From assembly GCA_963817785.1 (NCBI GenBank), contig CAWFPL010000007.1, positions 338,598 through 402,597 on the forward strand: a stretch of DNA of 64,000 nucleotides, in the 5' to 3' direction. Position numbers and translations under genes: made by a program. A model generated the notes under the pieces. It saw nothing but the letters and a program-made list of their open reading frames with translations, searched no databases and was not told where the DNA came from. Within the stretch, counting starts at the first letter, position 1. Every line of letters begins with the position of its first letter. Shown here piece after piece: positions 14,642 through 59,400 of the stretch. Source of the DNA: an uncultured Pseudomonadota bacterium (GTDB lineage Bacteria > Pseudomonadota > Gammaproteobacteria > Burkholderiales > SG8-39).

Positions 14642-15946
14642 ATGGCAGCAAACGTGGAAACGGTCGGCGCGCTCGAGCGGCGCGTGTCGATGTCGGTGCC
14701 GCTCGAGGAGATCGAGCGCCGGGTCGACGAGCGGCTCAAGCAACTCGCGCGCAACGCCAAGATGCCGGGCTTCCGCCCCGGCAAGGTGCCGATGAAGCTG
14801 GTAGCCCGGCAGTACGGCATGCAGGTGCGCTCCGAGGTGCTCGGCGACGCGGTGGAGAAGGCTTTCGGCGAGGCGGTGAAGGGGGCCAACCTCAGGGTGG
14901 CCGGTAACCCGCGCATCGAGAAGAAGGACGGCGCCGACGACAAGGCGCTCGAGTTCAGCGCCACCTTCGAGGTCTACCCGGAGGTGAAGCTCCGCGACGT
15001 CGCGAGCGCGACCGTGGAGCGGCCGCAGGTGAGCGTCGACGAGGCGGCCGTCGACAAGACCATCGAGATCCTGCGCAAGCAGCGCATCCAGTACGTGCCG
15101 GCGGTGCGCGGCGCGCAGGACGGCGACCGGGTGACGGTCGACTTCGAGGGCACGATCGATGGTCAGCCGTTCGGCGGCAACAAGGCCTCCGGGTTTGCGT
15201 TCGTGCTCGGCGAGGGCCGCATGCTGCCCGAGTTCGACGCCGCGGCGCGCGGCATGGCCGCCGACGAAAGCAAGAGCTTCGAGCTCGGCTTCCCGGCCGA
15301 TTACCACGGCAAGGAAGTCGCCGGAAAGATCGCCCGCTTCGAGCTCGCGATCAAGCAGGTCGAGGAGCCGAAGCTGCCCGAGCTCGACGCCGAGTTCGCC
15401 AAGGGTCTGGGGGTGGCCGACGGCGACCTGGCCAAGATGCGCGAGGAAGTGAAGGCAAACGTCGAGCGGGAGGTGAAGAAGCGCATCGAGGCGCGCACCA
15501 AGAGCCAGGCGCTGCAGGCGCTGCTCGACAGCACGCCGCTCGACCTGCCGAAGGCGCTGGTGCAGGAGGAAGCGCAGCGCCTCGCGCAGGCCGCGGCTGC
15601 CGACCTGCAGGCGCGCGGGCTGAAAATCGAGCAGGGGCGGCTCGATCCCGCGGCGTTCGATGCGAGCGCCAAGCGCCGCGTGGCGCTCGGGCTGATTATC
15701 GGCGAGCTGGCGCGCGCGCAGGGCCTGCAGCCCAAGCCTGACCAGGTGCGCGCCCTGATCGAGCAGGAGGCGCAAGGCTACGACAGCCCCGCCGAGGTGG
15801 TAAAATGGTTTTACATGCAGCCGCAGCGCTTGTCGGAAATGGAGGGCCTGGCCCTCGAGGGCAATGTCGTCAACTGGTTGCTTTCCAAGGCCAAGGTTGT
15901 CGACAAAGCGGTTTCCTTCGACGAACTGATGGGCAGCGGCGCATGA
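14642..15946 (+). CDS. tig: trigger factor
   Basis: [20 protein letters not shown]..., ribosome-binding loop GFRPGKVP. Located upstream of clpP. Confidence 0.95.
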
Positions 15947-16594
15947 GCGACTTCCTCTGGCAATTTCCTCCGGCAGCCTCGGGGCGCACCGAGCCGCAAG
16001 GGCTCGGCCTGATCCCGATGGTGATCGAGCAGATCGGGCGCGGCGAGCGCGCCTACGACATCTATTCGCGCCTGCTCAAGGAGCGGGTGATGTTTCTGGT
16101 CGGGCCGGTCACCGAGCTGACGGCGAACCTGATCGTGGCGCAGCTGCTGTTCCTCGAGTCCGAGAACCCGGACAAGGACATCTTCTTCTACATCAACTCG
16201 CCGGGCGGCTCGGTGTCGGCGGGCATGGCGATCTACGACACCATGCAGTTCATCAAGCCGGACGTGTCCACGCTGTGCGTGGGGCAGGCGGCGAGCATGG
16301 GCGCGCTCCTGCTCGCCGCGGGCGCCAAGGACAAGCGCTTCTGTCTGCCCAACTCGCGCGTGATGATCCACCAGCCGCTGGGCGGCTTCCAGGGCCAGGC
16401 CTCGGACATCGAGATCCACGCGCGCGAGATCCTGTACCTGCGCGCAGCGGCTCAACGAGATCCTGGCCAAGCACACCGGCCAGACGGTGGAGGCGATCGC
16501 GCGCGACACCGATCGCGACAATTTCCTGTCCGGCGAGGACGCGGTAAAGTACGGTCTCGTGGACAAGGTGCTGACGGCGAGGGAACCAGGCTAG
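15943..16594 (+). pseudogene. clpP: ClpP protease subunit, one extra base near 16441-16447 as written
   Basis: The N-terminal 166 aa are in one frame (…[11 protein letters not shown]…[25 protein letters not shown]). The conserved C-terminus [42 protein letters not shown] continues in the +1 frame. Confidence 0.85.
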
Positions 16595-16605
16595 GAGCAC
16601 AGAGT

Positions 16606-17878
<1,273 letters not shown>

Positions 17879-18109
17879 CAAGAACCGGCGCGCCGCCGGG
17901 GTGTCGAAACAGCGGGGCGGCCGATTGTCAGAAACGTCAAATCCGGCAGTATTTTGCGCGCCGGCGCGTTGCGGCGCACGGCGGGTACGTGTAGGCTAAC
18001 CCTCAGGGGTAGCGCCACGCGACGCGCGTTCCTCGCGGGGCAAATGCCCGTTGATTTTTGGCCTGGAGGCCGCATCTTCCAGGGAGCATCCACGCCTTAG
18101 AGGCCCGTA

Positions 18110-20544
<2,435 letters not shown>

Positions 20545-20556
20545 ACGCGAGGCGGC

Positions 20557-20595
20557 CTTGCCGGCGGCGCCGCCGCGGGCAAGACCCAACTTTTT
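20557..20595 (+). terminator. probable rho-independent terminator after lon
   Basis: GC-rich imperfect hairpin CTTGCCGGCGGC/GCCGCCGCGGGCAAG followed by a TTTTT run. Confidence 0.4.
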
Positions 20596-20634
20596 GGGAA
20601 AAGGGCAGCGAGCAGGTACGCGCAAGGAGGAACA

Positions 20635-20907
20635 GTGAACAAAGCGGACATGATCGAGCAGATCGCGCAGGCGGCGGAAATCTCGAAATCGGCCGCCGAG
20701 CGCGCGGTCGACGCGATGGTCGGGGCAATCAAATCGAGCCTGAAGAAGGGCGACAGCGTGACGCTGGTAGGGTTCGGCACCTTCTACGCCGGCAAGCGCG
20801 CGGCGCGCACCGGGCGCAATCCGCAGACCGGAGCGGAAATCAAGATCGAAGCCGCGCAAGTGCCGAAGTTCCGCGCTGGAAAAGCCCTGAAGGATGCGCT
20901 AAACTGA
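20635..20907 (+). CDS. hupB: DNA-binding protein HU-beta
   Basis: GTG start after [17 protein letters not shown]...GFGTF...[11 protein letters not shown]...[12 protein letters not shown]. Confidence 0.95.
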
Positions 20908-20947
20908 CGCGCTTTTTTTGCGGCGCGTTGCCGAACGGGTGGCCGGA

Positions 20948-21022
20948 GGGTGCTTAGCTCAGCGGTAGAGCGTCGCCCTTACAAGGCGAATGTCGGGAGT
21001 TCGACCCTCTCAGCACCCACCA
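20948..21022 (+). tRNA. tRNA-Val (anticodon TAC)
   Basis: Acceptor GGGTGCT/AGCACCC, anticodon loop CTTACAA, T-loop TTCGACC, encoded CCA. Confidence 0.9.
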
Positions 21023-45027: not shown

Positions 45028-47718
45028 GTGTCTTTGCAGACGATGGGGGGAGACATGGGGAGCGCCAGGGAAGACTACGAGCACTTCGTGCGCTGGCTGC
45101 ACCAGCCCGACAGGCGCGTTCGAGAGGACGTTCTGCGCTTTGCCAACATGGTTCTGGCGGACTTCGAGCGTACCGCCGGGACCTTCCGCCAGCACAATAG
45201 CCGTTCAAACCATCTGGCGGTCCTCGCGCGCCGAGTTCTTGCCACGACATCTGCTGCTGTGCCAGAGGCACCGGCGCAGAACCCCGCACTACCTTGGCCT
45301 TGGAAGAGACTGCGGCAGCTCTCGGTTGGTCCGTTCAGGGGATTTCGACGAAACGAGTCGTTCGACCTGCAAAAGCGCGTGCTTCTTATCTACGGGCCGA
45401 ACGGCAGCGGTAAGAGCAGTCTGTGCGAGGCGTTGGAGCACACGCTCCTCGGAACGGTGCAGGAAGCTGAGGCCAGACGCATCGAGGCCCAGCAGTACTT
45501 CGCAAACATCCATGCCCGACGCTTCGTCGCGCCACGGCTCACGGCAACGGATCATGGCGACCAGGAAATCGTCGTAGCGGCGAATCCCGACACTTATCGT
45601 TTCTGCTTCGTCGAAAAGAATCGCATCGAAGCATTTGCGCGGATGGCTGCTCGGCCACCCGCCACGAGGACCGAGCTCATCGCCACGCTGTTTGGCATGG
45701 AGAAATTTAACGACTTTGCGAGTCACTTCAACGAATCGATGGATGCGGCGCTGGTTTGCGACGCCGAGAACGAGCGTGCATTGACCAGCCGCCGGCAAGT
45801 TCTCGCCCGCGACCAGCAAACCGTCGCCGCCGAGCAAGCGTCCTTGATGAAGCTCAACCAGGGGGAAGCGACATTCGCCGAGGGCTGCCGGCCAGGCACG
45901 TCCTATGTCGATCTCAAGGCGTGGATTGGTACTCCGGAAGCGCCCGGACGCCTGCAGGAGCTTGACGGCATCCTGAACGTCGTTCCGCCGGCGGTCGTGG
46001 GGATCACACGCGAGGGATTGGCCAATCGCTATACGGCAGCGGACGGCGCAGCGGACCGCTTGGGAACAGCGACCAGACAGCTCGAGGCAAGAAGCCACCA
46101 GGTTTCCTTCAAGGACCTTTACACCGCAGTGCTCGCCTTGCAAGCGGCCCATGAAGACCGATGCCCTGCGTGCGACACCCCGCTGAATGCCGTTACCACT
46201 GATCCGTACCAGAAGGCAACGGCGGGTCTACGGGATCTCCGCGATCTTGCCGCACTGCAGGAAGAGGCCGCGCGTTGTCGCCAACAGCTGGATGAGGCAT
46301 CACGATCCTTGCGTGTGGACCTCAATATCGCGTTCGCTTCGATGACTCAGAACGAGCAGAACACGACGCCCGTGGGGCGCTATATCGCCGGACTGGATCA
46401 AGCACCACGCGGTGATCGCTGGTGGCAGGACGTCTACGCTCCAATAAGAGGTGACGGCCGGGAAGTGGAGCCGGCGTCGCTGGAGCAAGTGCTGGAAATC
46501 GCGTCGCGCATCGAGCTACGGGATCAGGAGATTCAACGTCAGGTTCAGGAACGTCAGGCACTCGTCCAAGAACGGGATACGCTGCTATTGTGGCAGCGTC
46601 AGATTCTGGAGCGGGACCTCGCCCGCAAATCCGCTGTGGATGAGATCGCCGCGGCCCGAGGACGTATCGCGCGATTTGACGAAGAAAATTCGGGTCTTAT
46701 TCAGCGGGCTGCCCAAGAACGTCAGAACATCGAGCGGGATCGCCCCATTAAGGTGGCGTACGACCAGTTTCTACCGATGCTGCGGTGCTTTAGGAACGAA
46801 CTGCCCGGCTTGCTGATGGAGGGCCTCAACGATCTCGCGAGAGACCTTTACAACGAATTCAACCAGCACGATCCCGAAGCGGACAAATTCGCCTCGCTGC
46901 ACCTTCCCCTAACGGGCGAACAGCGCATCGATATCGCATTTCGTGGCGACCCACAGCGTCGCCTCGACGCCCTGGTGATTCTGAGTGAGGGACATATTCG
47001 ATGTCTCGGACTTGCAATCCTGATGGCGAAGGCGATCAGCACTGGCTGCTCGCTGATCATATTCGACGATGCGATCAACGCCATCGACCATGACCATCGG
47101 AGCGGTATTCGGCAGACTATTTTCGAGAGCGATCGTTTTCGGGAGATTCAGCTCGTCGTCACCTGCCACAGCGGTGAGTTCATCAAGGACATCCACAATC
47201 ATTTGCCGCAGTACAGCCGAAACGATTGGACGGAGTATGTCATCAGCCACCACGCCGGCGACTATCATCCACAGGTGGTCTCGAACACAATGAGCCGAAA
47301 CTACGTGGAGCGGGCGCGAGTCGCCAAGAACGCATTGGACGACCGCGAGGCGCTTTCCTGCGGTCGCAGAGCACTGGAAATGCTATCCAACAAGGTCTGG
47401 AAATGGCTCGCGTCCTTCGGCCGCGGCGAACTGCGATTGGAACTGAGAGGTCCGGGAGCCGAGCCGTCGCTGCGAGATCTCTGCGAAGCGCTGCGTACAA
47501 GATTGAACGACAATACCTTCGTGCATCCGGAGAAGGATTCGATTGTCGATGCCCTGAATCTCATACTGGGAATTCCGGCACAAAACCTTATTTGGACCTA
47601 TCTCAACAAGGGCACGCACGAACGCGCCGATCGCGACGATTTCGACGCAGCGCATGTCGAAAGCGTAATTGCCACACTTGAACATCTCAACGACCTTCGG
47701 CTACGTCGCGCTGCATAG
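45028..47718 (+). CDS. Rad50/SbcC-like ABC (SMC-type) ATPase with CxxC hook and extra C-terminal domain
   Basis: Walker A GPNGSGKS, long coiled-coil insert containing RCPACD, signature-like LSEGH, Walker B LIIFDDAINAID, H-loop VVTCHS. Alternative ATG starts at 45043 and 45055. Confidence 0.7.
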   Translation: MSLQTMGGDMGSAREDYEHFVRWLHQPDRRVREDVLRFANMVLADFERTAGTFRQHNSRSNHLAVLARRVLATTSAAVPEAPAQNPALPWPWKRLRQLSVGPFRGFRRNESFDLQKRVLLIYGPNGSGKSSLCEALEHTLLGTVQEAEARRIEAQQYFANIHARRFVAPRLTATDHGDQEIVVAANPDTYRFCFVEKNRIEAFARMAARPPATRTELIATLFGMEKFNDFASHFNESMDAALVCDAENERALTSRRQVLARDQQTVAAEQASLMKLNQGEATFAEGCRPGTSYVDLKAWIGTPEAPGRLQELDGILNVVPPAVVGITREGLANRYTAADGAADRLGTATRQLEARSHQVSFKDLYTAVLALQAAHEDRCPACDTPLNAVTTDPYQKATAGLRDLRDLAALQEEAARCRQQLDEASRSLRVDLNIAFASMTQNEQNTTPVGRYIAGLDQAPRGDRWWQDVYAPIRGDGREVEPASLEQVLEIASRIELRDQEIQRQVQERQALVQERDTLLLWQRQILERDLARKSAVDEIAAARGRIARFDEENSGLIQRAAQERQNIERDRPIKVAYDQFLPMLRCFRNELPGLLMEGLNDLARDLYNEFNQHDPEADKFASLHLPLTGEQRIDIAFRGDPQRRLDALVILSEGHIRCLGLAILMAKAISTGCSLIIFDDAINAIDHDHRSGIRQTIFESDRFREIQLVVTCHSGEFIKDIHNHLPQYSRNDWTEYVISHHAGDYHPQVVSNTMSRNYVERARVAKNALDDREALSCGRRALEMLSNKVWKWLASFGRGELRLELRGPGAEPSLRDLCEALRTRLNDNTFVHPEKDSIVDALNLILGIPAQNLIWTYLNKGTHERADRDDFDAAHVESVIATLEHLNDLRLRRAA

Positions 47719-48179: not shown

Positions 48180-49480
48180 AACAGCGTCCTAGTCGTCGAC
48201 ATCGCTAAATATGGATCGCCCCTTCGGCGCTGCAGCGACCTTTGCTGGTGAAATGTTCGACCAAAAACCAACATCTTCCTCGGGGGCTTTCTTATTGGAA
48301 ACGTCTGCTATGGCGTCGTCGATCTGGCCACTTAGTAAATCCAGCATGTTTTGAACAGTCGCGTCGTCCGAAAACGCTTCTTGCAATTGCTCAACAAAGT
48401 TCCGGACCTGGTCAAATTGGTTTGGTATATCAAACTCTGGATCAGCTTCATCTGCAAGTTCCGATATGCGGTCCGAAACAACGCTGTCGAGTGTGGCCAC
48501 CAGCTGGACTCCTAGTCGTATAAGTTGAGTGGGCCGAAGGAGCGCCAGGATGTCGTCGTCACTCAAGAAGGAGGCGTCAAGGTCGTTAAGCGCGGCCCGT
48601 TCGAGTTTGTCTGCCATTTCAAAGCGAATCTCCTCCGGCAGTCGGTGCAGATTGTGAACGCGTGCGAGAAAGCGCAGCCGCCGGTCACTGGCGATTCGCC
48701 AAAAGTGTTGGTGTTGAGCCTCACGTCGAAACAAAATTGAGTCTGCACCCAAAATGGCGGTGACCACTGTGTCTGATGCGCGGTTTGTTAAGAACTCAAG
48801 CAGAGGTCCATTGATTTCAGGCACGTCGGGCACCCCAATCAAACGACCAACTAAGTGCTCAAATGCCGACAGCGGAATAACAACAGCATCGCGAATCGAT
48901 TCGGCACCTTCGCATACGGCTTCGGCAAGCAATGTCTCGAGCTTCGCCCCCTGAACATATAGTTCCACTAGGTCGGAACGCGCGCTTAGCATGCTACTGA
49001 TAGCATCGGTGAACGTGGGGTGCACGAAGCCCCAGATCTGCTGAGAATCGTCTTGGCGAACCGATACAAATGACCCCTTCAACTGCGGTAGCGCATCAGC
49101 AATCGCGCGCGCAGTGACGCCGTACTTTTCGGCGACCAGGCTCGTCGAATCGCTAGCGAGGTCATGCGCCGGCAGCCTTCCTTGGCGAAGGAAGACAAGG
49201 GTCATGGCCGCTTGGTGCGGCTCGTCCAACTCTCGGATCGTTTGAACCAAGAACTCTGCCGGTTCTGCGACAAACTTGATCAAGTCATCAGGAAAGCTTT
49301 TCAGCGCTTTGGTATAGGTGCGATCGCCCAAGCGACGTGCAATCTCCGGCAGCAGCCGCGAATTTCCGGCTAATGCAGGTAGGTGGGCCTTTATCCGGCG
49401 CTTCCAAGCAGCTGTTTGATTCCCCGCCTTCAAATGGTTATAGATGATCTGCTCGCGTTCTTCTGGGCTTAATGAACCTA

Positions 49481-50583
49481 TTGAGTATTTCCTAACCTCG
49501 TGACAACCGAATTGTTCCTCATGCGTTACTCGGGTGTTGGCATAACATCGGAGTTTGCGCATGAAGACGAAGAACAAAATCGATGCCGGGGCGAAGCGCC
49601 GGGTGCGGGCGGCGCGGCTGCTTCAGGCCGGTCACGCTCCCGCGCAGGTGGCTGCTATGGTGGGCGCGCCGCGCCAGACGGTATACCGCTGGAAGGGCGT
49701 GCTGGAGTCCGAGGGAATCGATGCGCTTCGGAGCGTGAGCAAGGGCGGGCGTCCCGCCCGACTCGGTGCCGAGGAACTGTCCAAGCTGCAAGTAGCTTTG
49801 CTCGAAGGCCCGACGGCGCACGGCTTTGGCACGTCGCTCTGGACGATCAAGCGGGTGCGCGTGTTTATCGAGCGGCGCTTCGGCGTTCACTACAGCGAGG
49901 TTCATGTCTGGCGGTTGCTCGGGCAGTTGGGCTTCTCCAGCCAGAAGCCCGATCGGCGTGCGCTGGAGCGCGATGATGTGGCCATCGAGCATTGGAAGCG
50001 GCACACCTGGCCCGGGCTTAAAAAAAAGCCCGCCGCGAGGACCGGCTGATCGTCTTCATCGACGAATCGGGCCTGTCGCAGCGCCCCACACGGGTGCGCA
50101 CCTGGGCGGTGAGAGGCGAGACTCCGGTGCTCCAGTTCTGCTTCAACTGGGACCACGTCTCGGTGATCGCCGGAATGCACTATCGCGGCGTGTGCTTTCG
50201 GCTTCACGAAGGCTCGGTCAAGAAAGAGCAGGTCCTCGAGTTCCTCAAGGCGCTCAAAGCCCACTATCGCCGCCGGCTTCTCATCTTGTGGGATGGAGGC
50301 AGACCTCACCGCAGTCGCTTGGTGCGCGACTACGTGGACTCGACCGACGGCGACATCCAGCTCGAGTTCCTGCCCGGCTACGCCCCGGAACTCAACCCCG
50401 TGGAGTACCTCTGGGCTTGGCTCAAGCGCCATGCGCTGGCGAACTTCTGCCCCGAGACGTTGAGCGAACTCCAGCACACCGCTCGCGGCAAGCTGAAATC
50501 CGCCCAACGGCGCTCCGCCATCATCGCCTCCTGCTGGGAACAGGCTCAACTGTTCTAATGTCATGCGGTTAGGTAATACTCAA
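49481..50583 (+). mobile_element. IS630-family insertion sequence, copy 1 (1103 bp, TA target duplication)
   Basis: Imperfect terminal inverted repeats TTGAGTATTTCCTAACC... / ...GGTTAGGTAATACTCAA, flanked by TA on both sides. Confidence 0.9.
49561..50558 (+). CDS. IS630-family transposase, two frames joined by a -1 shift at an A8 run
   Basis: The HTH part ends just after CTTAAAAAAAAG. The DDE part (LIVFIDESG...LPGYAPELNPVEYLW) continues in the -1 frame. Confidence 0.85.
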
Positions 50584-52004
50584 TAGATCGACTACGGCCC
50601 TGTCATCTGCTAGAACGGGCAAATTCCTCGTACCCAGTTTCGGTTTCGCGCCATGCCAGATGTGGCTCCGAGAGGTCAGAATGAATCGGTTTCCGGACTC
50701 AATCGCCGCCTTCACCTTTGGCATCGCGTTGATCCAACAATCGACAAAATCCGATCTGAGTTGATTTGGTCCGAACGCATCGTCGACCCAGTAGAGTCGA
50801 TTCTTCTCGTGCGGATTCCATCGACTGGCTAGTTCGAGGGGGCCGTCACACTTCAGACATTGATGGTGCTCGCCGTCGATTGCAGTCGTTGACAGGATCG
50901 CGGCGAGCATGGACTTTCCAGTCGCGGGTGCCCCCAGAAGCAGAACGATCTTGTGTTCTGCCAACATACGGACGGCGGTGCGATGGGCGGCAGTTGGTAC
51001 GTAGACACGCAGGCCTGGTTGCAGGTGTCCCAGAAGGGCTTGCGTTTGCTGCGTGCATCTTTCATCAAGGATCGTCGATAAGTCCCCCAAGCCATATACA
51101 CATGGCACCAAGGCTCGCAATCGAGCGCTGCCTCGGATCTGTAGCGTCACCCACTCTCGACCGAGTACATGGGGCTCACGAACGCCCGCTTCGACAAGTT
51201 TGTCTCGGATTTGCGCAGCGACAGGGGCATCGACTCCCAAGCTCGTAATGAGATAGTACGTCTCTGCTCGTCTCGCGGCCACCAACTCGCGAACCGTAGC
51301 CAACTCTGCATCAATAGCAGTTGCACGCAGCCGCTGGTCGGCCTTGCCGCTAAACTTGCACTGAACGGTGGCTTCAGAGCCCGTTTGGTCAGAGCCTGCC
51401 TTTCGCAATTGGAAGACGGCGTCTTGCCCACCGTCCTGGGCCTCGCGGTAGATCGAGACTGTTGTACCCAATGTCTCCGCGCATACCTGCGCGCAGAGAT
51501 CTTGAAATGCCTTCCACCCAAGCGTGTGAATGGCTAGATCAACGTTGGCGCCTTGTACCTGCACTTCAGCCTCCGGCCTTCATGCTGGAATGGATGGACT
51601 AGAAATCTGCGTGTTTGCAATCTGGGACATAGGTCGCGGTACGCTCCGTGGGCAGGCAAACACAGCGCCGTTCAGCTAAATGGCCCTTCCAAGTCATTTA
51701 ATCACCGAACAGCCGAAACGCCCAGACCCTCTCGACCTGAATGTTCGCAGCCTGCAGCGCCAGGCGCACGGACTCGGCATCGGGCGCCCGGTAAAGGCTG
51801 ATCATTCGCCGGCGGTCGGACGACAGGTAGCGCCATAAGTGTGCCAAGGGCAATCAGCATTTTTCAGAGTGTCGCAATTTGCCTCCCCTGATCCCCGTAA
51901 AATCGCAAATGGCCGAATCAGCGGGGCGGATCGCCCAGTCACCGCCAACTGCGGCATTCTACTTTTCAGTGGCTCCTTTCTGGAAACGCGGCAGGCTACT
52001 TCGG

Positions 52005-52301: not shown

Positions 52302-53132
52302 CTATTTTCGGTTTGGGCGGCGAACCACGCTCGTCCCATTCTCGTTGTAGCGCACCGGAAACGCATCAGGGTCATAGCGCGCGTCTAGCATCGAGGCCTC
52401 GGGCAATATCAGCGTCAGCACCTCACTCCCCATGGCCACGGAATGTTCGCGCACCTCGTATTCGCCGCCGTCGGCGTTCGTAAACCATGCGTCGGCTCCA
52501 GACTTTCGAAGCCCCGTTTCCTGCTTGCCGGAGATGAGCAGGTCGTACGCAAAGCTATCTTCGTCGAGTTCTTGCTTGAGATACCACCTGCGAGGGACGT
52601 CCGGCGTCCGTAAAAACCACCGCAGCCCACTGTCGTCGTAGCTGGTCAGGATGGCCGGCACGGTATTAACGTCGATAAGTCGAATCGCAGCACTCAAGAG
52701 TCCGCAGTCAAAATCTGCTGCGAGGAGAGCGAGGTCGTTTAGCGAAGGCGTCTTGATTTCCTTAATGCGCGGCTTAAACAGATGACCAGGCATTAGCAAG
52801 TGGGCCGCATAGTGATCCGCTTCGCGCTCCTTGGTTCGGTCTGCTGCAGCCAAGTTGACGGACACATCGTCGACGCGGCATCGGAAAGACTGTCCCCGAT
52901 GATGATGCCAGTGGCCGAGCTCGTGGCCGATGGAAAACCGCTGACGCGTCGGGCGGATGCCCTTCTGGATGGTCGCGATCGCGCGACCCCCTATGCCAAC
53001 GAGGGTCGCTTCGCACCCTTGCAGGCGCTCGTAGCGCACTTCCACGCCAGCCTCGAAGGCGATCGCTTCGACATCGATCTCCTTGGGTGCAGTGATGCCG
53101 AGCTCGGCGATGCATTCCTCGGCCGGGTGCAT
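52302..53132 (-). CDS. ImmA/IrrE-family zinc metallopeptidase with about 130-aa C-terminal domain
   Basis: HEXXH motif HELGHW with downstream E...HLLMP. Third gene of a tightly packed operon. Confidence 0.75.
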   Translation of the reverse strand: MHPAEECIAELGITAPKEIDVEAIAFEAGVEVRYERLQGCEATLVGIGGRAIATIQKGIRPTRQRFSIGHELGHWHHHRGQSFRCRVDDVSVNLAAADRTKEREADHYAAHLLMPGHLFKPRIKEIKTPSLNDLALLAADFDCGLLSAAIRLIDVNTVPAILTSYDDSGLRWFLRTPDVPRRWYLKQELDEDSFAYDLLISGKQETGLRKSGADAWFTNADGGEYEVREHSVAMGSEVLTLILPEASMLDARYDPDAFPVRYNENGTSVVRRPNRK

Positions 53133-53135
53133 GGG

Positions 53136-53537
53136 CTACTGAGGCTCGTCCGTGGGGGAGATTCCGAGCTCTCTCAACTGCCGATAGATGCGAAGCACAT
53201 CGTCGTCGGACATTTCCTTGAGGTCCCTCGCCGCTAGAGTGAATCGCGGATTGTTAACCGCTTCCGCGATGACGCGCCGAGCCTCGCCGACGTCGATAGG
53301 CTCCTCGACAGCCGGGACCATTGTACGGCGATCCAATGCCCGCCGGGCGGCCTGCAATCGGCGCTTTCCAGCCTCCTGCCGCGCGGCCTGCACAATTTCG
53401 GCAAACCGCGCGCGCTCGGGGGCTCCCGTCTGCGGAGCGCCAAGGATATCTTCCTCCGGCTGTTGCTGCAGGCTCTCGAGATAACCATCGATGAACGCCT
53501 GAAGTTGTTGTACGGCGTTCCCCTTGCTGTCGCTCAT
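53136..53537 (-). CDS. hypothetical 133-aa protein between the sigma-like and ImmA genes
   Basis: ATG overlaps the upstream stop (ATGA). Its own stop lies 3 nt before the ImmA start. No HTH recognised. Confidence 0.55.
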   Translation of the reverse strand: MSDSKGNAVQQLQAFIDGYLESLQQQPEEDILGAPQTGAPERARFAEIVQAARQEAGKRRLQAARRALDRRTMVPAVEEPIDVGEARRVIAEAVNNPRFTLAARDLKEMSDDDVLRIYRQLRELGISPTDEPQ

Positions 53538-54142
53538 TTTTGCCTCCAAGGTCTCGCCAACTCCTTGCACTTTCGGTGCATCCGCTTTCGGATCGTGTCG
53601 AGCTCAGACTCGGTCACGCGCAGCGATTCGCGAAGCTCATCGCCCCTCAGACCCTTGGCGAGCTCCTCGATCAGCACCGAAACGTCTACGTCGTCCTGAA
53701 ATAGAGCTTCGATCTTGCCTAAGGCCTGCCGGGCGGCGGCCAAGCGCTCGGGGTCGCGCAGCTCGACTGCTTCGGGCCCGCGCTCCTCTTCCTCCTCGGC
53801 GTCTTCCGGGTCGGAAAAAACGTCGATGCGTGACCGTCGGCTCGCCTTCGCAGCCGCGTTTGCGATGCTGCTCATCGCCTTCCATAAGAATGGCACGATG
53901 GCCAGGCCGCGGGGGCACCTGCGCTGGAGGGCAAAGGCGCGCACCAAGGCCTCCTGCAAGAGGTCCTCCGGAGATTCGAACCCATTGATGTAACAGAACA
54001 ATTCCGCCCCGCGCTGGAGGATGGCTTCCTCCTTCGCGGTGAGGGCAGCGATAGCCGCCTCAACCTCAGCACGCGACAGAGCATCTACAGCGTCCGGCGC
54101 ATCCAATTCCTGCAAGGTCGCCTCCTCTGAGACATGCTCCAT
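53534..54142 (-). CDS. ECF-type sigma-70-like protein
   Basis: Start at M98 of the track ORF. PEDLLQEALVRAF resembles region 2. LRGDELRESLRVTESELDTIRKRMHRKCKEL resembles the region 4 HTH. Confidence 0.5.
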   Translation of the reverse strand: MEHVSEEATLQELDAPDAVDALSRAEVEAAIAALTAKEEAILQRGAELFCYINGFESPEDLLQEALVRAFALQRRCPRGLAIVPFLWKAMSSIANAAAKASRRSRIDVFSDPEDAEEEEERGPEAVELRDPERLAAARQALGKIEALFQDDVDVSVLIEELAKGLRGDELRESLRVTESELDTIRKRMHRKCKELARPWRQK

Positions 54143-54444
54143 CGGCGCAGTTTGCGGACACGCCGAAAAAAATTCTTTGCATGTCCGGAGATGCCGAGCA
54201 TGGAGCCTTTCTATATGTAGGCGGCGGCGGCGGCCGGCTCGGGGATCTACAGCGGGCTGGAGCAATCGCGGGCTACGGAGCGGAAATGTAAGGGCATAAC
54301 CGATGGACGCACAAGCCGAGCAATTGCTTCTGGAGATTGGCATACAGCTCGACGCCGGGATATTTCCGAAAGTCAAAAACGGGGGATTCGTGATGCCCGG
54401 CGAGCCCTCCCGACCTCTACCTAATCGGGGCAAGGAGAAGTCAG

Positions 54445-55220
54445 ATGGAGAAGGACAAGAGCGAGAAGGACCGCGGGAAACAGGAGAATCCCGGCCATGG
54501 CGAGGAGATCCCAGGCCGCGGCCAGGGCAACTCGGGCGACCACGGCCGTCCGGACCACTCTGGGCGGCCGGTAAAGCCGCACCGGTCGTCAGCGCGCTGG
54601 ATCAGTACGAGCAGGAAGTAAGTGCGCTGCAAGCGATTTACCCAGACGCGCGGTCTTGGAGAACGCAACGGGGGGTATGGCTTGCCGTTAGAGCAAGGCT
54701 GCTCCCCGGGCTACGCGAGCACGCGCTCTTCCTCATGGGCGTGCCCGCCGTCACCGGCGTGGTCCGAAGCTGGGCGTTCTGGGTAGATCCTATCTTTCTT
54801 CCCGTTTGGATTGGTCCCCGTCACACAAACTTCGGCGACGGCTCCATCTGCGCCTTCGAGCCGGCCGATGGCACATGGAGCTTCGGGGATTCGCTCATCG
54901 AGCTCGTGGACATGTACGCGGTCTGGGCTTTGAGGCATCTGCACCTGCGGCATACCGGGCGGTGGCCGGGCCCCCAGGCCGTACATCGTCCCTACGAACG
55001 GCTCCTCGAAATAGGATCCGACGAGCGGTGTGGTTGCCCGACACCCCGGGGAACATACTCACGATGCTGCCGCAGTCGTGACCTCGGCCGCGACCGCATC
55101 GCTGACGCGGTGGACTTCCTGATCTTTTCGCGCTGGCAGCTCCGTCGTCCGCTGCCGGTCGTGGAGCAATTTGTCTCCACCGGCTTTCGAAACATCGAAA
55201 TGCTCGAAAGACTCATCTGA
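54445..55220 (+). CDS. UBC/E2-like protein with C-terminal SEC-C-like Cys motif; frame changes near 54575-54595 as written
   Basis: ATG at 54445 follows AGGAGA, and that frame has GC-rich third positions but stops at 54621. The E2-like body (RHTNFGDGSICAFEPADGTWS; CGCPTPRGTYSRCC) is in the frame of track ORF 54303..55220. Confidence 0.45.
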
Positions 55221-55499
55221 CGCCGGCATCGCAGTGGCGTAAGGGACCGCTTGCGGTTGCGTACTCAGTCGCGGCTAATCCAGCGTTGACGGCCGCGGAA
55301 GCGCACCCTCTTAACGATGTCGTCGGCGTCCCCCAAAAACCAGCTCCAGATGATGTGCGTGTTGCGGCCTTTCGCCTCGCGCGCGTTAGTATCCATAATT
55401 CGCATTATCGACGCTGAGCTCTCCGGCCGCACGACCGCTTGGGGTCGCATTCCGACCGCTGTACGCTCGCCTTGAGAGCTGGACGCAGGAGATCGAGTA

Positions 55500-56390
55500 G
55501 TGGGTAGCATTTTCGTCGTCGGAGCGGGCCTTTCCAAGACATGTGGGATAGCGACGGATTTGGAGATGCTCGATCAACTCAATCCGTTGCTACGGCGTAC
55601 GCCGTCAAAGGAAGATATCGCGTTCCGAGTCGCGCCGGAGAGGTGGAAAACGACGATCGAATCTCTGCGTGAGCAACTGTTCCATTATCGCGCAGGAGTC
55701 GGGTTCGAGTTGTTTATGTCAACGCTCTGGGCGGCGAAGTATTCGGCTTACTATCTAGAGCTCGACAGGAATATCTTTCGCGAAGAGGAGCGGGAGCTCC
55801 AGCGCGCTCTCAAGAGATACCTAAAGGACTGCGTGCGCCGAATTGATTGGGGTGAGTCGGGCGGGAGGACGATTCTAGAGCTTGTGCGGTCGATTAACTG
55901 GAATACAGACTTCGTAATAACGTTCAATTATGACCAACTGCTCGAGGCCGCTGCGGCTCGGTCGGGTCTTCGAACGGAAAATCGCATCCTCCATCTCCAC
56001 GGCGCAATGAACGAGCGGACGCTGGCTTGGCCGATCTATGCGAAGTTCGCCTATCGAACGACGAAGACTGCATTGGGTAAGCGCTGGAAGCGAGCTTTCC
56101 AGATACTTCGCGGACAGAGGGAAATCGATCGAGTGGATCGCCTTATCTTTATCGGCTATTCCATGCCGTCGTCAGATCTCGAAGCGTTGACCCTGTTTCT
56201 CTACACTGATTGGTACAACAGTCGCGACACGCACAACTATTCGGTAATGGTGGTAAACCCGAGCGACGTGCAGAACAACTATGCGTTTCTCCGAAAGGTC
56301 CCGGAGTACCGGCAACAGACTCTTGCCGATTGGTTGAGGAGTTCAAAGACACCTCCTGCGGGGCAACCGAATTTAGATCAAGCTACGTAA
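55500..56390 (+). CDS. stand-alone SIR2-like (SIR2_2 family) protein
   Basis: GTG start 8 nt after AGGAG. Motifs VVGAGLS, ITFNYDQLLE, LHLHG, LIFIGYSMPSSD. Confidence 0.7.
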   Translation: MGSIFVVGAGLSKTCGIATDLEMLDQLNPLLRRTPSKEDIAFRVAPERWKTTIESLREQLFHYRAGVGFELFMSTLWAAKYSAYYLELDRNIFREEERELQRALKRYLKDCVRRIDWGESGGRTILELVRSINWNTDFVITFNYDQLLEAAAARSGLRTENRILHLHGAMNERTLAWPIYAKFAYRTTKTALGKRWKRAFQILRGQREIDRVDRLIFIGYSMPSSDLEALTLFLYTDWYNSRDTHNYSVMVVNPSDVQNNYAFLRKVPEYRQQTLADWLRSSKTPPAGQPNLDQAT

Positions 56391-56558: not shown

Positions 56559-58168
56559 GATTCTGTTGAAAAACCTCGCCGGTGATCGAATCTTTGGTCC
56601 CATGAAGTGTCCGATCTTCCAGTGCATTGAGGGAGCACTTCAAGATGATGGGACAGCAATCGGGCGGGCAAGAGCGACTGTTCTATTCGTTCAATCTTGA
56701 AGATCACGTTCCGGCGAAGCACCTGCTGCGCGGCATCGACCGATGCCTCGATCTGAGCGGGCTGCGCGAACACCTGGCCAAGTATTACAGCCACACGGGT
56801 CGGCCCTCGGTCGATCCGGAACTGATGGTGCGGATGCTGATCATCGGCTACAGCTACGGCATTCGTTCGGAGCGCCGCCTGTGCGAGGAGGTGCATCTGA
56901 ACCTCGCGTATCGCTGGTTCTGTCGTCTTGGTCTGGAGGATGCCGTACCGGAGCATTCCACCTTCTCCAAGAACCGGCATGGGCGATTTCGCGAGAGCGG
57001 CGCGTTTCGCTGGGTGTTTGAGGAGGTGGTGCGTTGCTGCATGGCGGCGGGCCTGGTCAAGGCAGAGGGCTTTGCGGTGGACGCGAGTCTGATTGCTGCC
57101 AACGCAAGCCATCAGCACAGCGTTGCGCCCGGTGAGCATTGCGATTGGAACAATCCCCAGATCGACACGCGCGCGATGCGCGAGTATCTGGCGGCCCTGG
57201 ATGATGAGGAGCTTGCCGCGGCAGCGTCGCGCAAGCTATCGCTCAGCGACCCGCACGCGCGCTGGACGGCGGCGACCGGAGGCATCGCCTTCTTCGCCTA
57301 CTCGACCAACTATCTGATCGACGTGGCTCATGGGGTGATCCTCGACGTGCAAGCGACGCCTGCTCACCGTACGGCGGAAGTCGAATCCACCAAGACCATG
57401 ATCGAGCGGGTCGAAGAGCACTTCGATCTCAAACCGCAGCGGCTCATCGCGGACATGGCCTATGGCTCGGCGCCGATGTTGGGCTGGATGGTCGAACAGA
57501 AGGCGATCGAGCCGCATGTGCCGGTGTGGGACAAGACCGAGCGCAAGGATGGCACCCTAGAGCGCGACGCCTTTCAATGGGACGAAGAAGCCGACGAATA
57601 CCGCTGCCCGCAGGGCTACGCCTTGCGCCGCCAATGGCGTCCCTTCAAGAACTCGCGCACGCACATCACCCAAGGCGAAACCGTCATCTATCGCTCAAGT
57701 AAGCGCAGTTGCACCGTCTGTCCGATGAAACCCCGGTGCTGCCCGAATACGCCCTTTCGCAAGATTGCCCGCAGCACCCACGAGTCGGCGCGTGACGTTG
57801 CTCGACGCATCGCCACCACGGCGGCGTATCAACGATCGCGCTGCGAGCGCAAGAAGGTCGAGATGCTCTTCGCGCACCTTAAGTCCATCCTCAAGCTCGA
57901 TCGCCTACGGCTTCGCGGACTCAGTGGCGCCACGGATGAATTCACCCTTGCCGCCACCGCCCAGAATTTGCGGCGTCTGGCCAAGCTCGTCTCACCGGCA
58001 CCACCGCTTCACGGGATAGGTGCGCCCGCATGAGGTGAAACCCTCCGAATTAGCCGACAAGCAAGGCTTCAAAGCCCAGTGCCGGGCACCAAAGCCCATC
58101 ACCTCGCGTCATTACTGCCAATATCCAAGCGCCAGTTCAGCCGCAACGTCGAGTTCTTCAACAGAATC
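56559..58168 (+). mobile_element. IS1182-family (IS5-like) insertion sequence
   Basis: Terminal inverted repeats GATTCTGTTGAAaAAC / GTTcTTCAACAGAATC enclose a single transposase gene. Confidence 0.8.
56645..58033 (+). CDS. IS1182-family transposase
   Basis: InsH-type N-terminus GRPSVDPELMVRMLIIGYSYGIRSERRLCEEV...AYRWFC and DDE-type C-terminus. Confidence 0.85.
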   Translation: MMGQQSGGQERLFYSFNLEDHVPAKHLLRGIDRCLDLSGLREHLAKYYSHTGRPSVDPELMVRMLIIGYSYGIRSERRLCEEVHLNLAYRWFCRLGLEDAVPEHSTFSKNRHGRFRESGAFRWVFEEVVRCCMAAGLVKAEGFAVDASLIAANASHQHSVAPGEHCDWNNPQIDTRAMREYLAALDDEELAAAASRKLSLSDPHARWTAATGGIAFFAYSTNYLIDVAHGVILDVQATPAHRTAEVESTKTMIERVEEHFDLKPQRLIADMAYGSAPMLGWMVEQKAIEPHVPVWDKTERKDGTLERDAFQWDEEADEYRCPQGYALRRQWRPFKNSRTHITQGETVIYRSSKRSCTVCPMKPRCCPNTPFRKIARSTHESARDVARRIATTAAYQRSRCERKKVEMLFAHLKSILKLDRLRLRGLSGATDEFTLAATAQNLRRLAKLVSPAPPLHGIGAPA

Positions 58169-58197
58169 GCCGAGGAGCGGCTGCTCGCGACGTCTTA

Positions 58198-59300
58198 TTG
58201 AGTATTTCCTAACCTCGTGACAACCGAATTGTTCCTCATGCGTTACTCGGGTGTTGGCATAACATCGGAGTTTGCGCATGAAGACGAAGAACAAAATCGA
58301 TGCCGGGGCGAAGCGCCGGGTGCGGGCGGCGCGGCTGCTTCAGGCCGGTCACGCTCCCGCGCGGGTGGCTGCTATGGTGGGCGCGCCGCGCCAGACGGTA
58401 TACCGCTGGAAGGGCGTGCTGGAGTCCGAGGGAATCGATGCGCTTCGGAGCGTGAGCAAGGGCGGGCGTCCCGCCCGACTCGGTGCCGAGGAACTGTCCA
58501 AGCTGCAAGTAGCTTTGCTCGAAGGCCCGACGGCGCACGGCTTTGGCACGTCGCTCTGGACGATCAAGCGGGTGCGCGTGTTTATCGAGCGGCGCTTCGG
58601 CGTTCACTACAGCGAGGTTCATGTCTGGCGGTTGCTCGGGCAGTTGGGCTTCTCCAGCCAGAAGCCCGATCGGCGTGCGCTGGAGCGCGATGATGTGGCC
58701 ATCGAGCATTGGAAGCGGCACACCTGGCCTGGGCTTAAAAAAAAGCCCGCCGCGAGGACCGGCTAATCGTCTTCATCGACGAATCGGGCCTGTCGCAGCG
58801 CCCCACGCGGGTGCGCACCTGGGCGGTGAGAGGCGAGACTCCGGTGCTCCAGTTCTGCTTCAACTGGGACCACGTCTCGGTGATCGCCGGAATGCACTAT
58901 CGCGGCGTGTGCTTTCGGCTTCACGAAGGCTCGGTCAAGAAAGAGCAGGTCCTCGAGTTCCTCAAGGCGCTCAAAGCCCACTATCGCCGCCGGCTTCTCA
59001 TCTTGTGGGATGGAGGCAGACCTCACCGCAGTCGCTTGGTGCGCGACTACGTGGACTCGACCGACGGCGACATCCAGCTCGAGTTCCTGCCCGGCTACGC
59101 CCCGGAACTCAACCCCGTGGAGTACCTCTGGGCTTGGCTCAAGCGCCATGCGCTGGCGAACTTCTGCCCCGAGACGTTGAGCGAACTCCAGCACACCGCT
59201 CGCGGCAAGCTGAAATCCGCCCAACGGCGCTCCGCCATCATCGCCTCCTGCTGGGAACAGGCTCAACTGTTCTAATGTCATGCGGTTAGGTAATACTCAA
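58198..59300 (+). mobile_element. IS630-family insertion sequence, copy 2 (same orientation, TA flanks)
   Basis: Collinear with copy 1. I saw four mismatches. It lies 29 bp from the IS1182 end. Confidence 0.9.
58278..59275 (+). CDS. IS630-family transposase (copy 2), -1 shift at an A8 run
   Basis: Same two-frame organisation as copy 1. Confidence 0.85.
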
Positions 59301-59400
59301 TAGCAGAGACCGGCACAGAGTGGACCCAGACGTTCAGGCAAAAAATCGCCCCGCCGGTGACTATTCACCGGCACTGCTCGATGCTCGGGCGAGTGCTCGG

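Follow-up and report, generated by a model that had tools for sequence, protein, structure and literature searches.

The 64,000-nucleotide stretch of contig CAWFPL010000007.1 analysed here (the window), from an uncultured Pseudomonadota bacterium, contains a cluster of five genes between positions 52302 and 56390, and the question raised by this locus is whether these genes form a single defence system. A reading made from the letters alone (the sequence-only reading) had proposed that they do, with a regulatory operon of sigma-like, 133-aa and ImmA-type genes placed divergently from an E2-like gene and a minimal SIR2 effector gene. Our analysis favours a different arrangement, to which we give a probability of about 55%: a damage-triggered protease/sigma switch drives the E2-like gene, which has a second gene embedded in it, and the SIR2 gene is a neighbour.

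On the minus strand three genes are tightly packed at 52302-53132, 53136-53537 and 53534-54115 (or 54142, depending on the start), and divergent from them the plus strand carries a 305-aa open reading frame (ORF) at 54303-55220 and a 296-aa ORF at 55500-56390. The divergence of the five genes and the three-gene minus-strand operon are as described in the sequence-only reading, but the starts on both strands and the length of the spacer had to be revised. Position 54445, taken there as the start of the E2-like gene, is the ATG with which another ORF begins, 58 aa long and out of frame with the E2-like ORF; the E2-like gene starts at ATG 54303, with an N-terminal IGxQLDxxIFPxVKNGG that is conserved in homologues. 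The spacer is 160 bp long (54143-54302), or 187 bp if the sigma gene starts at TTG 54115, and not about 300 bp. This TTG is most likely the sigma start, in place of ATG 54142, because GGAGG lies 5 nt upstream of it and homologues begin at an equivalent M/L/V-Q-E; ATG 54142 falls within a conserved promoter-like motif. The locus is not an assembly artefact, since a 3857-bp Logan contig (L081; L numbers designate the loci and contigs compared), independently assembled from a different run, encodes sigma, E2-like and SIR2 proteins identical to those of the window.

The ImmA-like gene at 52302-53132 (minus strand) encodes a 276-aa protein that proved to be a real CapP. It matched the PADLOC capP model with E=8.9e-57 (protein residues 2-242, model positions 7-239 of 242), Pfam Peptidase_M78 with E=1.5e-11 and the CapP entry PDB 7t5t with E=6.8e-9, and the features predicted from its sequence are those of a CapP-type M78 zinc metallopeptidase, that is, a HExxH motif (HELGH, residues 70-74), a conserved Cys85 and a C-terminal GAF-like domain. 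The geometry that had been likened to CapH/CapP regulators holds here as well as in related loci, with a true capP gene and regulator genes divergent from the regulated gene.

Between capP and the sigma gene lies the gene of the 133-aa protein (53136-53537, minus strand), whose ATG overlaps the sigma stop codon by 4 nt (ATGA) and which ends 3 nt before capP. The length of 133 aa is that of the gene call in the identical contig L081, and the gene is kept between sigma and capP in L082-L089 and L004. Pfam revealed no helix-turn-helix (HTH) in this helical protein, so it is not a CapH in the sense of an XRE-type HTH repressor. Its match to PADLOC capH (E=1.9e-4) covers the C-terminal part only, and the C-terminus conserved in the family reads N[DN][AP]R[FI]T[LM]AARxLxxM[SP]D[DE][DE]xxRxYxQ. 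When the 133-aa family was aligned with the CapH family by hhalign, AARDLKEMSDDD was set on the CapH cleavage helix FFRSYKKLEPDD, in the right register and with a non-significant E=0.038. A profile search with the family found no PDB relative, and no recognisable anti-sigma domain was detected by Pfam or the PDB profile search. We regard the protein as a candidate anti-sigma factor and CapP substrate.

The third minus-strand gene (53534-54115) encodes a putative sigma factor of 193 aa from TTG 54115, or 202 aa from ATG 54142. The protein has no Pfam match above threshold and several weak NCBIfam matches to extracytoplasmic function (ECF) sigma factors, all under the curated cut-offs. A profile of 26 homologues, however, matched Mycobacterium tuberculosis SigH with E=4e-5 and covered both sigma2 and sigma4. 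The AlphaFold2 model shows two helical domains with an acidic disordered linker between them, and Foldseek returned almost only ECF sigmas for it (SigH, SigL, sigmaE/RseA including PDB 1or7, and AlgU/MucA), with probabilities up to 0.93; JGI labels the homologues 'sigma24 family'. The sigma-like call of the earlier reading is borne out by these searches, and the protein is, as judged from profile and model, a divergent ECF (group 4) member composed of sigma2 and sigma4 domains only. In Propionivibrio sp. (L004, 7234-7823) the sigma gene is split into two ORFs, one for each of the sigma2 and sigma4 halves, either through a frameshift or because the copy is decaying; the 123-aa middle gene and capP of that locus are intact.

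The 305-aa product of the gene at 54303-55220 (plus strand) consists of an N-terminal module (residues 1-35), a linker (about 38-92), a UBC-like core and, after the core, a SEC-C-like zinc motif (CGC..Y..CC, residues 243-256). We found 327 homologues, typically of 290-310 aa and none of them with a Pfam domain; neither Pfam nor NCBIfam holds a family for this protein, and the N-terminal module has no match in NCBIfam. H174-T175-N176, which resembles the HPN motif of E2 enzymes, and C183 are invariant in 105 sequences. The AlphaFold2 model (pLDDT, the predicted local distance difference test, 82; pTM, the predicted template modelling score, 0.78) places a helix, four strands, the HTN/Cys loop and a long helix in the UBC order, with pLDDT above 95 for the N-terminal module and the core and below 50 for the linker. 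The Foldseek list for this model is headed by E2s (UbcH7, BilB and CdnG-E2, PDB 8hsb), the best E being 0.23 and the target-normalised TM-score about 0.4, and the PADLOC E2 models of cyclic oligonucleotide-based antiphage signalling systems (CBASS) match weakly (E=7.6e-5). The earlier domain call stands on the PADLOC match, the model and the Foldseek ranking: the protein is E2/UBC-like, with HTN...Cys as the candidate active-site motif. A match from a PDB-sequence profile search was due to low complexity and was discarded as spurious.

No E1 (ThiF-like), ubiquitin-like protein (Ubl), CD-NTase or deubiquitinase (DUB) is encoded at 48-60 kb of the window, and none recurs beside the E2-like gene in the 80 loci described below. 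By analogy with E2-only CBASS, in which an E1-independent bacterial E2 has been documented (PMC12948482), the E2-like protein probably needs no E1. It resembles CdnG-E2 of these type II-short systems in being a UBC-like protein with a candidate catalytic cysteine and no E1, and 8hsb is among its structural matches; it differs in having no CD-NTase or effector gene, in its additional N-terminal module, long linker and SEC-C-like zinc motif, and in that the similarity is marginal.

Public gene callers split the E2-like gene into an ORF of 58-63 aa and a short E2 ORF, whereas translation in all frames leaves the long frame-0 ORF intact; an ATG is present at the equivalent start position, 47 codons before the ATG of the small ORF, in most loci. 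The NCBI record of this genome gives only a 161-aa ORF (P0232) at the gene. RefSeq lists hypothetical proteins of 47 aa (WP_157700430.1) and 155 aa on the Rhizobium etli plasmid NZ_CP020910.1 (L098), and no gene at the E2-like copy of the Sulfitobacter plasmid NZ_CP045378.1 (L097, 9018-9848). Annotation pipelines in this way yield a truncated E2 ORF of 161 or 155 aa, a 'hypothetical' of 47-58 aa, or nothing, and because they mis-handle the gene, the family is invisible to neighbourhood-based discovery of defence genes.

The distribution of the family was explored by scanning one genome per species, which gave 80 E2-like loci in Alpha-, Beta-, Gamma- and Deltaproteobacteria, Acidobacteriota, Flavobacteriales and others. 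Clustering of the neighbours indicated that a divergent regulator precedes the E2-like gene in nearly all of them and that its type varies: CapP with a CapH-like XRE protein, HTH-M78 fusions, a shorter M78 peptidase with an XRE protein, WYL (CapW-like) proteins, OmpR-type proteins, or the sigma trio. In only about one third of the loci does a gene on the same strand follow the E2-like gene within 450 bp, and these followers are heterogeneous; they include a SIR2_2 protein of 678 aa (L004), a ThsB-like TIR protein, OLD/GajA-like, PIN, DruA, HNH and Fic proteins, a C5 methylase, a resolvase and BrnA. L082 has a same-strand Aga-type SIR2 of 877 aa about 660 bp downstream, past fragments of an insertion sequence (rve). 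Other loci have a convergent neighbour that is often a defence gene (type I S subunit, type IIG/DrmMI enzyme, MzaA, AbiH or AbiEii). Since the regulators recur, the following gene varies and the SIR2 family of the window is absent, the conserved unit is, in this comparison of loci, a swappable damage-type regulator together with the E2-like gene. The family, widespread and covered by no Pfam or NCBIfam model, is nearly always tied to damage-responsive regulators, the signature that also led to Bil and Bub.

Two lineages illustrate what follows the E2-like gene. In sphingomonads (L036, L040, L045, L049, L053 and L071) a 239-aa TIR protein with a Ser-rich, low-complexity N-terminus (PADLOC ThsB1, E=1e-113) begins 17-27 nt after it, and the next gene, of 262 aa, has no PADLOC match. 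In Rhodobacteraceae (L046-L062) the region about 850-2100 nt past the E2-like start holds, directly after the E2-like gene, a 94-aa protein with repeated GGSYRSA.SGR[YF]VT, and beyond it a DUF1778 and GNAT (TacA/TacT-like) toxin-antitoxin pair.

The payloads of the sigma trio were surveyed in about ten loci and in the literature. The trio stands beside the E2-like gene in the window, L004, L072, L082 and L087-L090, and L001 and L003 show partial sigma matches at a contig end. In L083-L086, contigs from soil and groundwater metagenomes, a trio of sigma, 132-aa and CapP genes is divergent from an operon of Multi_ubiq, DUF6791-ThiF and 255-aa genes (Bub/6e-type). In L083, L084 and L086 the capP frame is broken into calls of 80 and 163 aa. 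Bub and Bil operons are controlled by CapH/CapP, CapW or CapK/CapS and contain E2-like enzymes (bioRxiv 10.1101/2024.11.21.623953; 10.1101/2023.09.26.559546). The locus studied here shares the sigma trio with the Multi_ubiq and ThiF operon, and differs from Bub and Bil in lacking E1, Ubl and DUB genes; no sequence similarity to that operon's third gene was found.

The alternative that survives best is that the cassette is a general DNA-damage or stress-response module, or one that maintains a mobile element, and that it is merely carried on an island without being antiviral. All regulator types beside the E2-like gene are of the damage or stress type, the related Bub operons, for which no anti-phage function has been demonstrated, have the same regulators, and a collection of 2.9 million viral contigs gave just one E2-like locus. 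On the other hand, the flanks of the gene elsewhere are rich in defence genes (type I and type IIG restriction-modification, MzaA, AbiH, AbiEii, ThsB, OLD and DruA), and the window copy is cargo of an integrative and conjugative element (ICE) beside an nSTAND3 gene. We hold the non-antiviral role to be possible, though it is not the outcome that we expect.

The spacer contains a pair of promoter-like motifs that face outward. One, TGTCCGCAAACTGCGCCGATGGAGC, lies at 54136-54160 on the minus strand and faces the sigma operon; the other, TGTCCGGAGATGCCGAGCATGGAGC, lies at 54182-54206 on the plus strand and faces the E2-like gene, so that the two form an inverted arrangement around an A/T-rich core of 21 bp. 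The pattern TGTCCG-N13-15-GGAGC has two matches in the window against 0.27 expected, and both are in this spacer. L001, L081 and L087-L090 have this pair at the equivalent position, and L082, L083 and L086 have variants of it; those of L083 and L086 adjoin the same trio at a Multi_ubiq and ThiF payload. Such a motif, present twice in outward orientation and kept with the trio when the payload differs, fits promoter-like elements of an autoregulated ECF sigma with one target. Scans for sigma70 promoters and terminators gave background levels only, and an element of the 5' untranslated region, GGGCTACGGNGCGGAAATGTAAAGG, is common to the sigma-trio subclade only and not to the whole E2 family.

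The same inverted TGTCCG...CGGACA could instead be the operator of a dimeric repressor, in which case the sigma-like protein would not activate the payload directly. The arms are reverse-complementary around an A/T-rich spacer, the classical shape of an operator, and the Cap systems studied to date act by repression. The trio encodes no HTH repressor, however, and the symmetry extends to GGAGC(A/C)TT located 13-15 nt outside each arm, which is a better fit to two -35/-10 pairs; the motif variants also accompany the trio at the Bub-type operon. An operator is, in our judgement, unlikely.

The gene at 55500-56390 (plus strand) encodes a minimal SIR2_2-type protein of 296 aa. Its Pfam SIR2_2 score, 26.5 bits, exceeds the gathering cut-off of 24.5, and the protein matches PADLOC SIR2 with E=1.5e-6 and has intact GAGLS, FNYD and HLHG motifs, that is, the GAGxS, NxD and catalytic His motifs, which upholds the earlier domain call; with 27.3 bits it stays below the AbiH cut-off of 30.9. 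We found 83 homologues of about 290 aa. In four long contigs the homologue lies in DNA rich in integrases or transposases, with neither an E2-like gene nor a common small partner ORF beside it. A two-gene unit made of the minimal SIR2 and a small upstream ORF was considered and rejected, the upstream ORFs in L092-L095 and the window being unrelated. The protein shares with the SIR2 proteins of defence systems (ThsA, DSR and the SIR2 partners of pAgo) the SIR2_2 score and the GAGxS, NYD and HxHG motifs; unlike these and AbiH, it has no sensor or partner domain in its 296 aa, scores below the AbiH cut-off and has no conserved partner gene. It is also not part of a Thoeris system (ThsA with a TIR-domain ThsB), as the window block has no TIR gene; sphingomonad loci are the only ones in which a ThsB-like TIR comes after the E2-like gene.

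That the five genes work as one defence system, with the E2-like protein as sensor or regulator and the minimal SIR2 as its dedicated NAD-depleting effector, was the central proposal of the sequence-only reading, and the comparison of loci does not support it. The E2-like and SIR2 genes lie on one strand, 280 bp apart and with no predicted terminator between them, the SIR2 catalytic motifs are intact, and in L004, L082 and the L036 group the E2-like gene is followed by other SIR2 or TIR proteins. The pairing is nevertheless not conserved: by tblastn the window SIR2 family is present in 0 of the 80 genomic E2-like loci, and the E2-like gene is absent from all four SIR2 contexts. Same-strand followers within 450 bp are confined to a minority of loci and are heterogeneous, as described above, the three SIR2 proteins (296, 678 and 877 aa) have the catalytic motifs alone in common, and the SIR2 gene has a GC content of 0.535, below the 0.60-0.66 of the cassette genes (0.565 in a short N-terminal segment of E2). 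We consider a five-gene system improbable. The SIR2 gene is probably an NADase-type defence gene in its own right, which shares the island with the cassette and is not a fixed partner of E2, because its family is absent from the 80 E2-like loci, its homologues occur without an E2-like gene and its GC content is lower. In this strain, transcription from the payload promoter may extend into it.

The 58-aa ORF at 54445-54621 (plus strand), MEKDKSEKDRGKQ...GRPVKPHRSSARWISTSRK, lies in the +1 frame of the E2 linker and is preceded by a Shine-Dalgarno sequence, AAGGAG, at 54432-54437. Of 81 loci inspected (78 fetched ones and the window), 79 have a +1 ORF of 41-63 aa beginning with ATG, with the consensus M.DKDREDPQPDHGKGPPDGKGRP.DHGRPV.PHRSSAQ, and encodes a peptide rich in Pro, Gly and charged residues; its stop is usually 63 codons before WIGPRHTN of the E2 core. 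The dual-coding statistics were calculated for 57 non-redundant loci. A Shine-Dalgarno-like sequence lies 4-14 nt upstream of the ATG (mostly 7-9 nt by eye) in 53 of them. The nucleotide entropy by codon position shows frame-0 wobble at E2 residues 1-30 and 101-305 and +1-frame wobble at 51-100, where the first position of frame 0, which is the third of the +1 frame, is the most variable (1.5-1.8 bits against 0.56-0.9); an exception is the block 51-60, with 1.34 bits at frame-0 position 2, and the blocks 31-50 are ambiguous. Translated from the same nucleotides, the +1 frame has a mean pairwise amino-acid identity of 50%, compared with 27% for frame 0 and 24% for the third frame. Frame 0 is nevertheless open in 57 of 57 loci, against about 3 expected when the peptide is resampled with synonymous codons (joint log10 probability about -105).

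These patterns indicate that both frames of the linker are under selection. The simplest reading is overprinting, in which a full-length E2-like protein, its linker only kept open, and an independent peptide are encoded by the same DNA; the peptide is probably a regulator or a substrate of the E2-like protein. It has no match in Pfam or NCBIfam, and no Rfam family matched at E<=1. A phmmer search of 1.84 billion representative proteins with the window peptide gave a single match, P0230, and has little power for the commoner DREDPQPDHGKGPP variant. In Bacillus subtilis, comS, the gene of a regulatory peptide of about 46 aa, lies out of frame inside srfAB with its own start. The small ORF described here likewise has its own start in another frame of a larger gene; unlike comS, it is conserved across several phyla, and its host frame is a disordered linker that is open but otherwise unconstrained. 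To our knowledge, the payload is among the clearest comparative cases of a conserved same-strand overlapping gene in bacteria.

A much less probable explanation of the +1-frame conservation is programmed frameshifting (fusions of N-module with peptide or of peptide with E2) or a constraint at the nucleic-acid level, which would agree with the lack of a frame-0 start codon close to where the conserved E2 core begins, with the fixed distance of the peptide stop and with the internal Shine-Dalgarno-like sequence, as such sequences can stimulate +1 frameshifting (for example in prfB), but which is opposed by the ATG and the Shine-Dalgarno-like sequence at initiation spacing, by the three-base periodicity and 50% identity typical of a translated frame, by the absence of any conserved slippery heptamer or Rfam match, and by a frame 0 open in every locus that, with the confident N-terminal module and the pTM of 0.78, fits one full-length protein.

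From the gene content, the coupling of the regulator genes, the motif pair, the dual coding and the regulator swapping, all of which are read directly from the sequences, we infer how the damage-triggered switch would work. The ECF-type sigma would be kept inactive by the co-translated 133-aa protein, which would have a sigma-binding N-terminus in place of the CapH HTH and would retain the CapH-like C-terminal helix. Single-stranded DNA (ssDNA) would activate CapP, and CapP would cut the 133-aa anti-sigma-like protein, the cut being predicted close to A102-A103|R104. The released sigma would then initiate at two outward promoters of the type TGTCCG-N17-GCMTTT in the spacer, of which one would boost the sigma operon and the other transcribe the payload, and from the payload mRNA the E2-like protein and the peptide would be produced together. 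Overall, this would be the activating, sigma-release counterpart of the CapH/CapP derepression switch. If true, it would represent a positively controlled CapH/CapP switch, running from protease to anti-sigma to sigma, with a candidate promoter motif.

ECF sigma and anti-sigma pairs under regulated proteolysis are well known, sigmaE-RseA being an example. The locus shares with this pair a two-domain ECF-like sigma and a translationally coupled downstream partner gene, and the same promoter-like motif at the sigma operon and at the target, which suggests autoregulation. It differs in that the candidate anti-sigma is soluble and has no recognisable anti-sigma domain or zinc motif, and in that the predicted protease is a cytoplasmic, ssDNA-activated CapP-type enzyme of the same operon. 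Compared with the CapH and CapP regulators of CBASS, Bil, Bub and DISARM, the CapP-type M78 peptidase, the divergent regulator genes and the CapH-like C-terminal helix are alike; the middle protein has no HTH and so cannot act as a DNA-binding repressor, and its co-translation with an ECF-type sigma implies that the target is activated through sigma release and not derepressed. Cleavage of the CapH C-terminal helix by CapP and activation by ssDNA have been reported by Lau et al. 2022 (bioRxiv 10.1101/2022.04.27.489752), who also noted, in one sentence, 24 CBASS systems with a sigma70-family sigma beside capH and capP. A sigma factor beside these regulators was already on record before the sequence-only reading; the variant is uncharacterised, as our literature search found no paper on its characterisation. 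The regulators are an uncharacterised variant of the Cap family, and the payload belongs to an E2-like family that has not been described before and that has a conserved gene embedded in it.

Several points weigh against the switch as we propose it. The similarity of the 133-aa protein to CapH is weak in both the PADLOC and the hhalign comparison, and its anti-sigma role is deduced from gene position. The inverted motif is unlike the common GGAAC/CGT consensus of ECF sigmas, and it could be an operator instead of two promoters. For the UBC fold no Foldseek E-value was significant, and topology, motif and ranking speak for it. No terminator was predicted in the 280-bp gap between the E2-like and SIR2 genes, and in several lineages the E2-like gene is followed by a gene of the SIR2 or TIR type (296 aa in the window, 678 aa in L004, 877 aa in L082 and the ThsB-like TIR of sphingomonads), which may point to a functional link of the E2-like gene with NADase effectors in a subset of lineages.

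A more speculative extension of the proposed switch makes the overprinted peptide of 41-63 aa a dedicated partner of E2. It would be a disordered Pup-like tag or a pseudo-substrate caught by Cys183 without an E1, with attack at GRPVxPHRSSAQ and the variable tail discarded, and its encoding within the linker would fix the stoichiometry. Together with the protease-released ECF sigma, this would constitute a self-contained, damage-triggered protein-modification module across Proteobacteria, Acidobacteriota and Bacteroidota. We regard this extension as doubtful.

The surroundings of the locus agree with the earlier description of ICE cargo placed between two IS630 copies and next to defence-like genes. 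Trb-type conjugation genes are found upstream of the block (26-44 kb), and the two IS630 copies, at 49479-50589 and 58196-59306, differ by 7 mismatches and bracket the whole block in the manner of a composite transposon. At the end of the Trb block an ORF of 896 aa (45028-47718) encodes an SMC_N/AAA_23 ATPase, which may be a further defence-type cargo gene, and a transposase-like ORF of 468 aa (56627-58033), located after the SIR2 gene and before the second IS630 copy, is, by eye from its translation, probably of the IS5/IS1182 family. Farther upstream (15700-21000), clpX and lon look frameshifted: the ClpX zinc finger and Walker A motif (GPTGSGKT) are in different frames, and the substrate-binding, AAA and protease parts of Lon are spread over three frames; these are either assembly indels or pseudogenes in core genes. 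Directly after the 896-aa ORF, a Mrr_cat-nSTAND3 gene (48189-51564; similar to PADLOC PDC-S73) is interrupted by the first IS630 copy, and in silico excision of this copy (49479-50589) restores a single Mrr_cat-nSTAND3 ORF of 759 aa.

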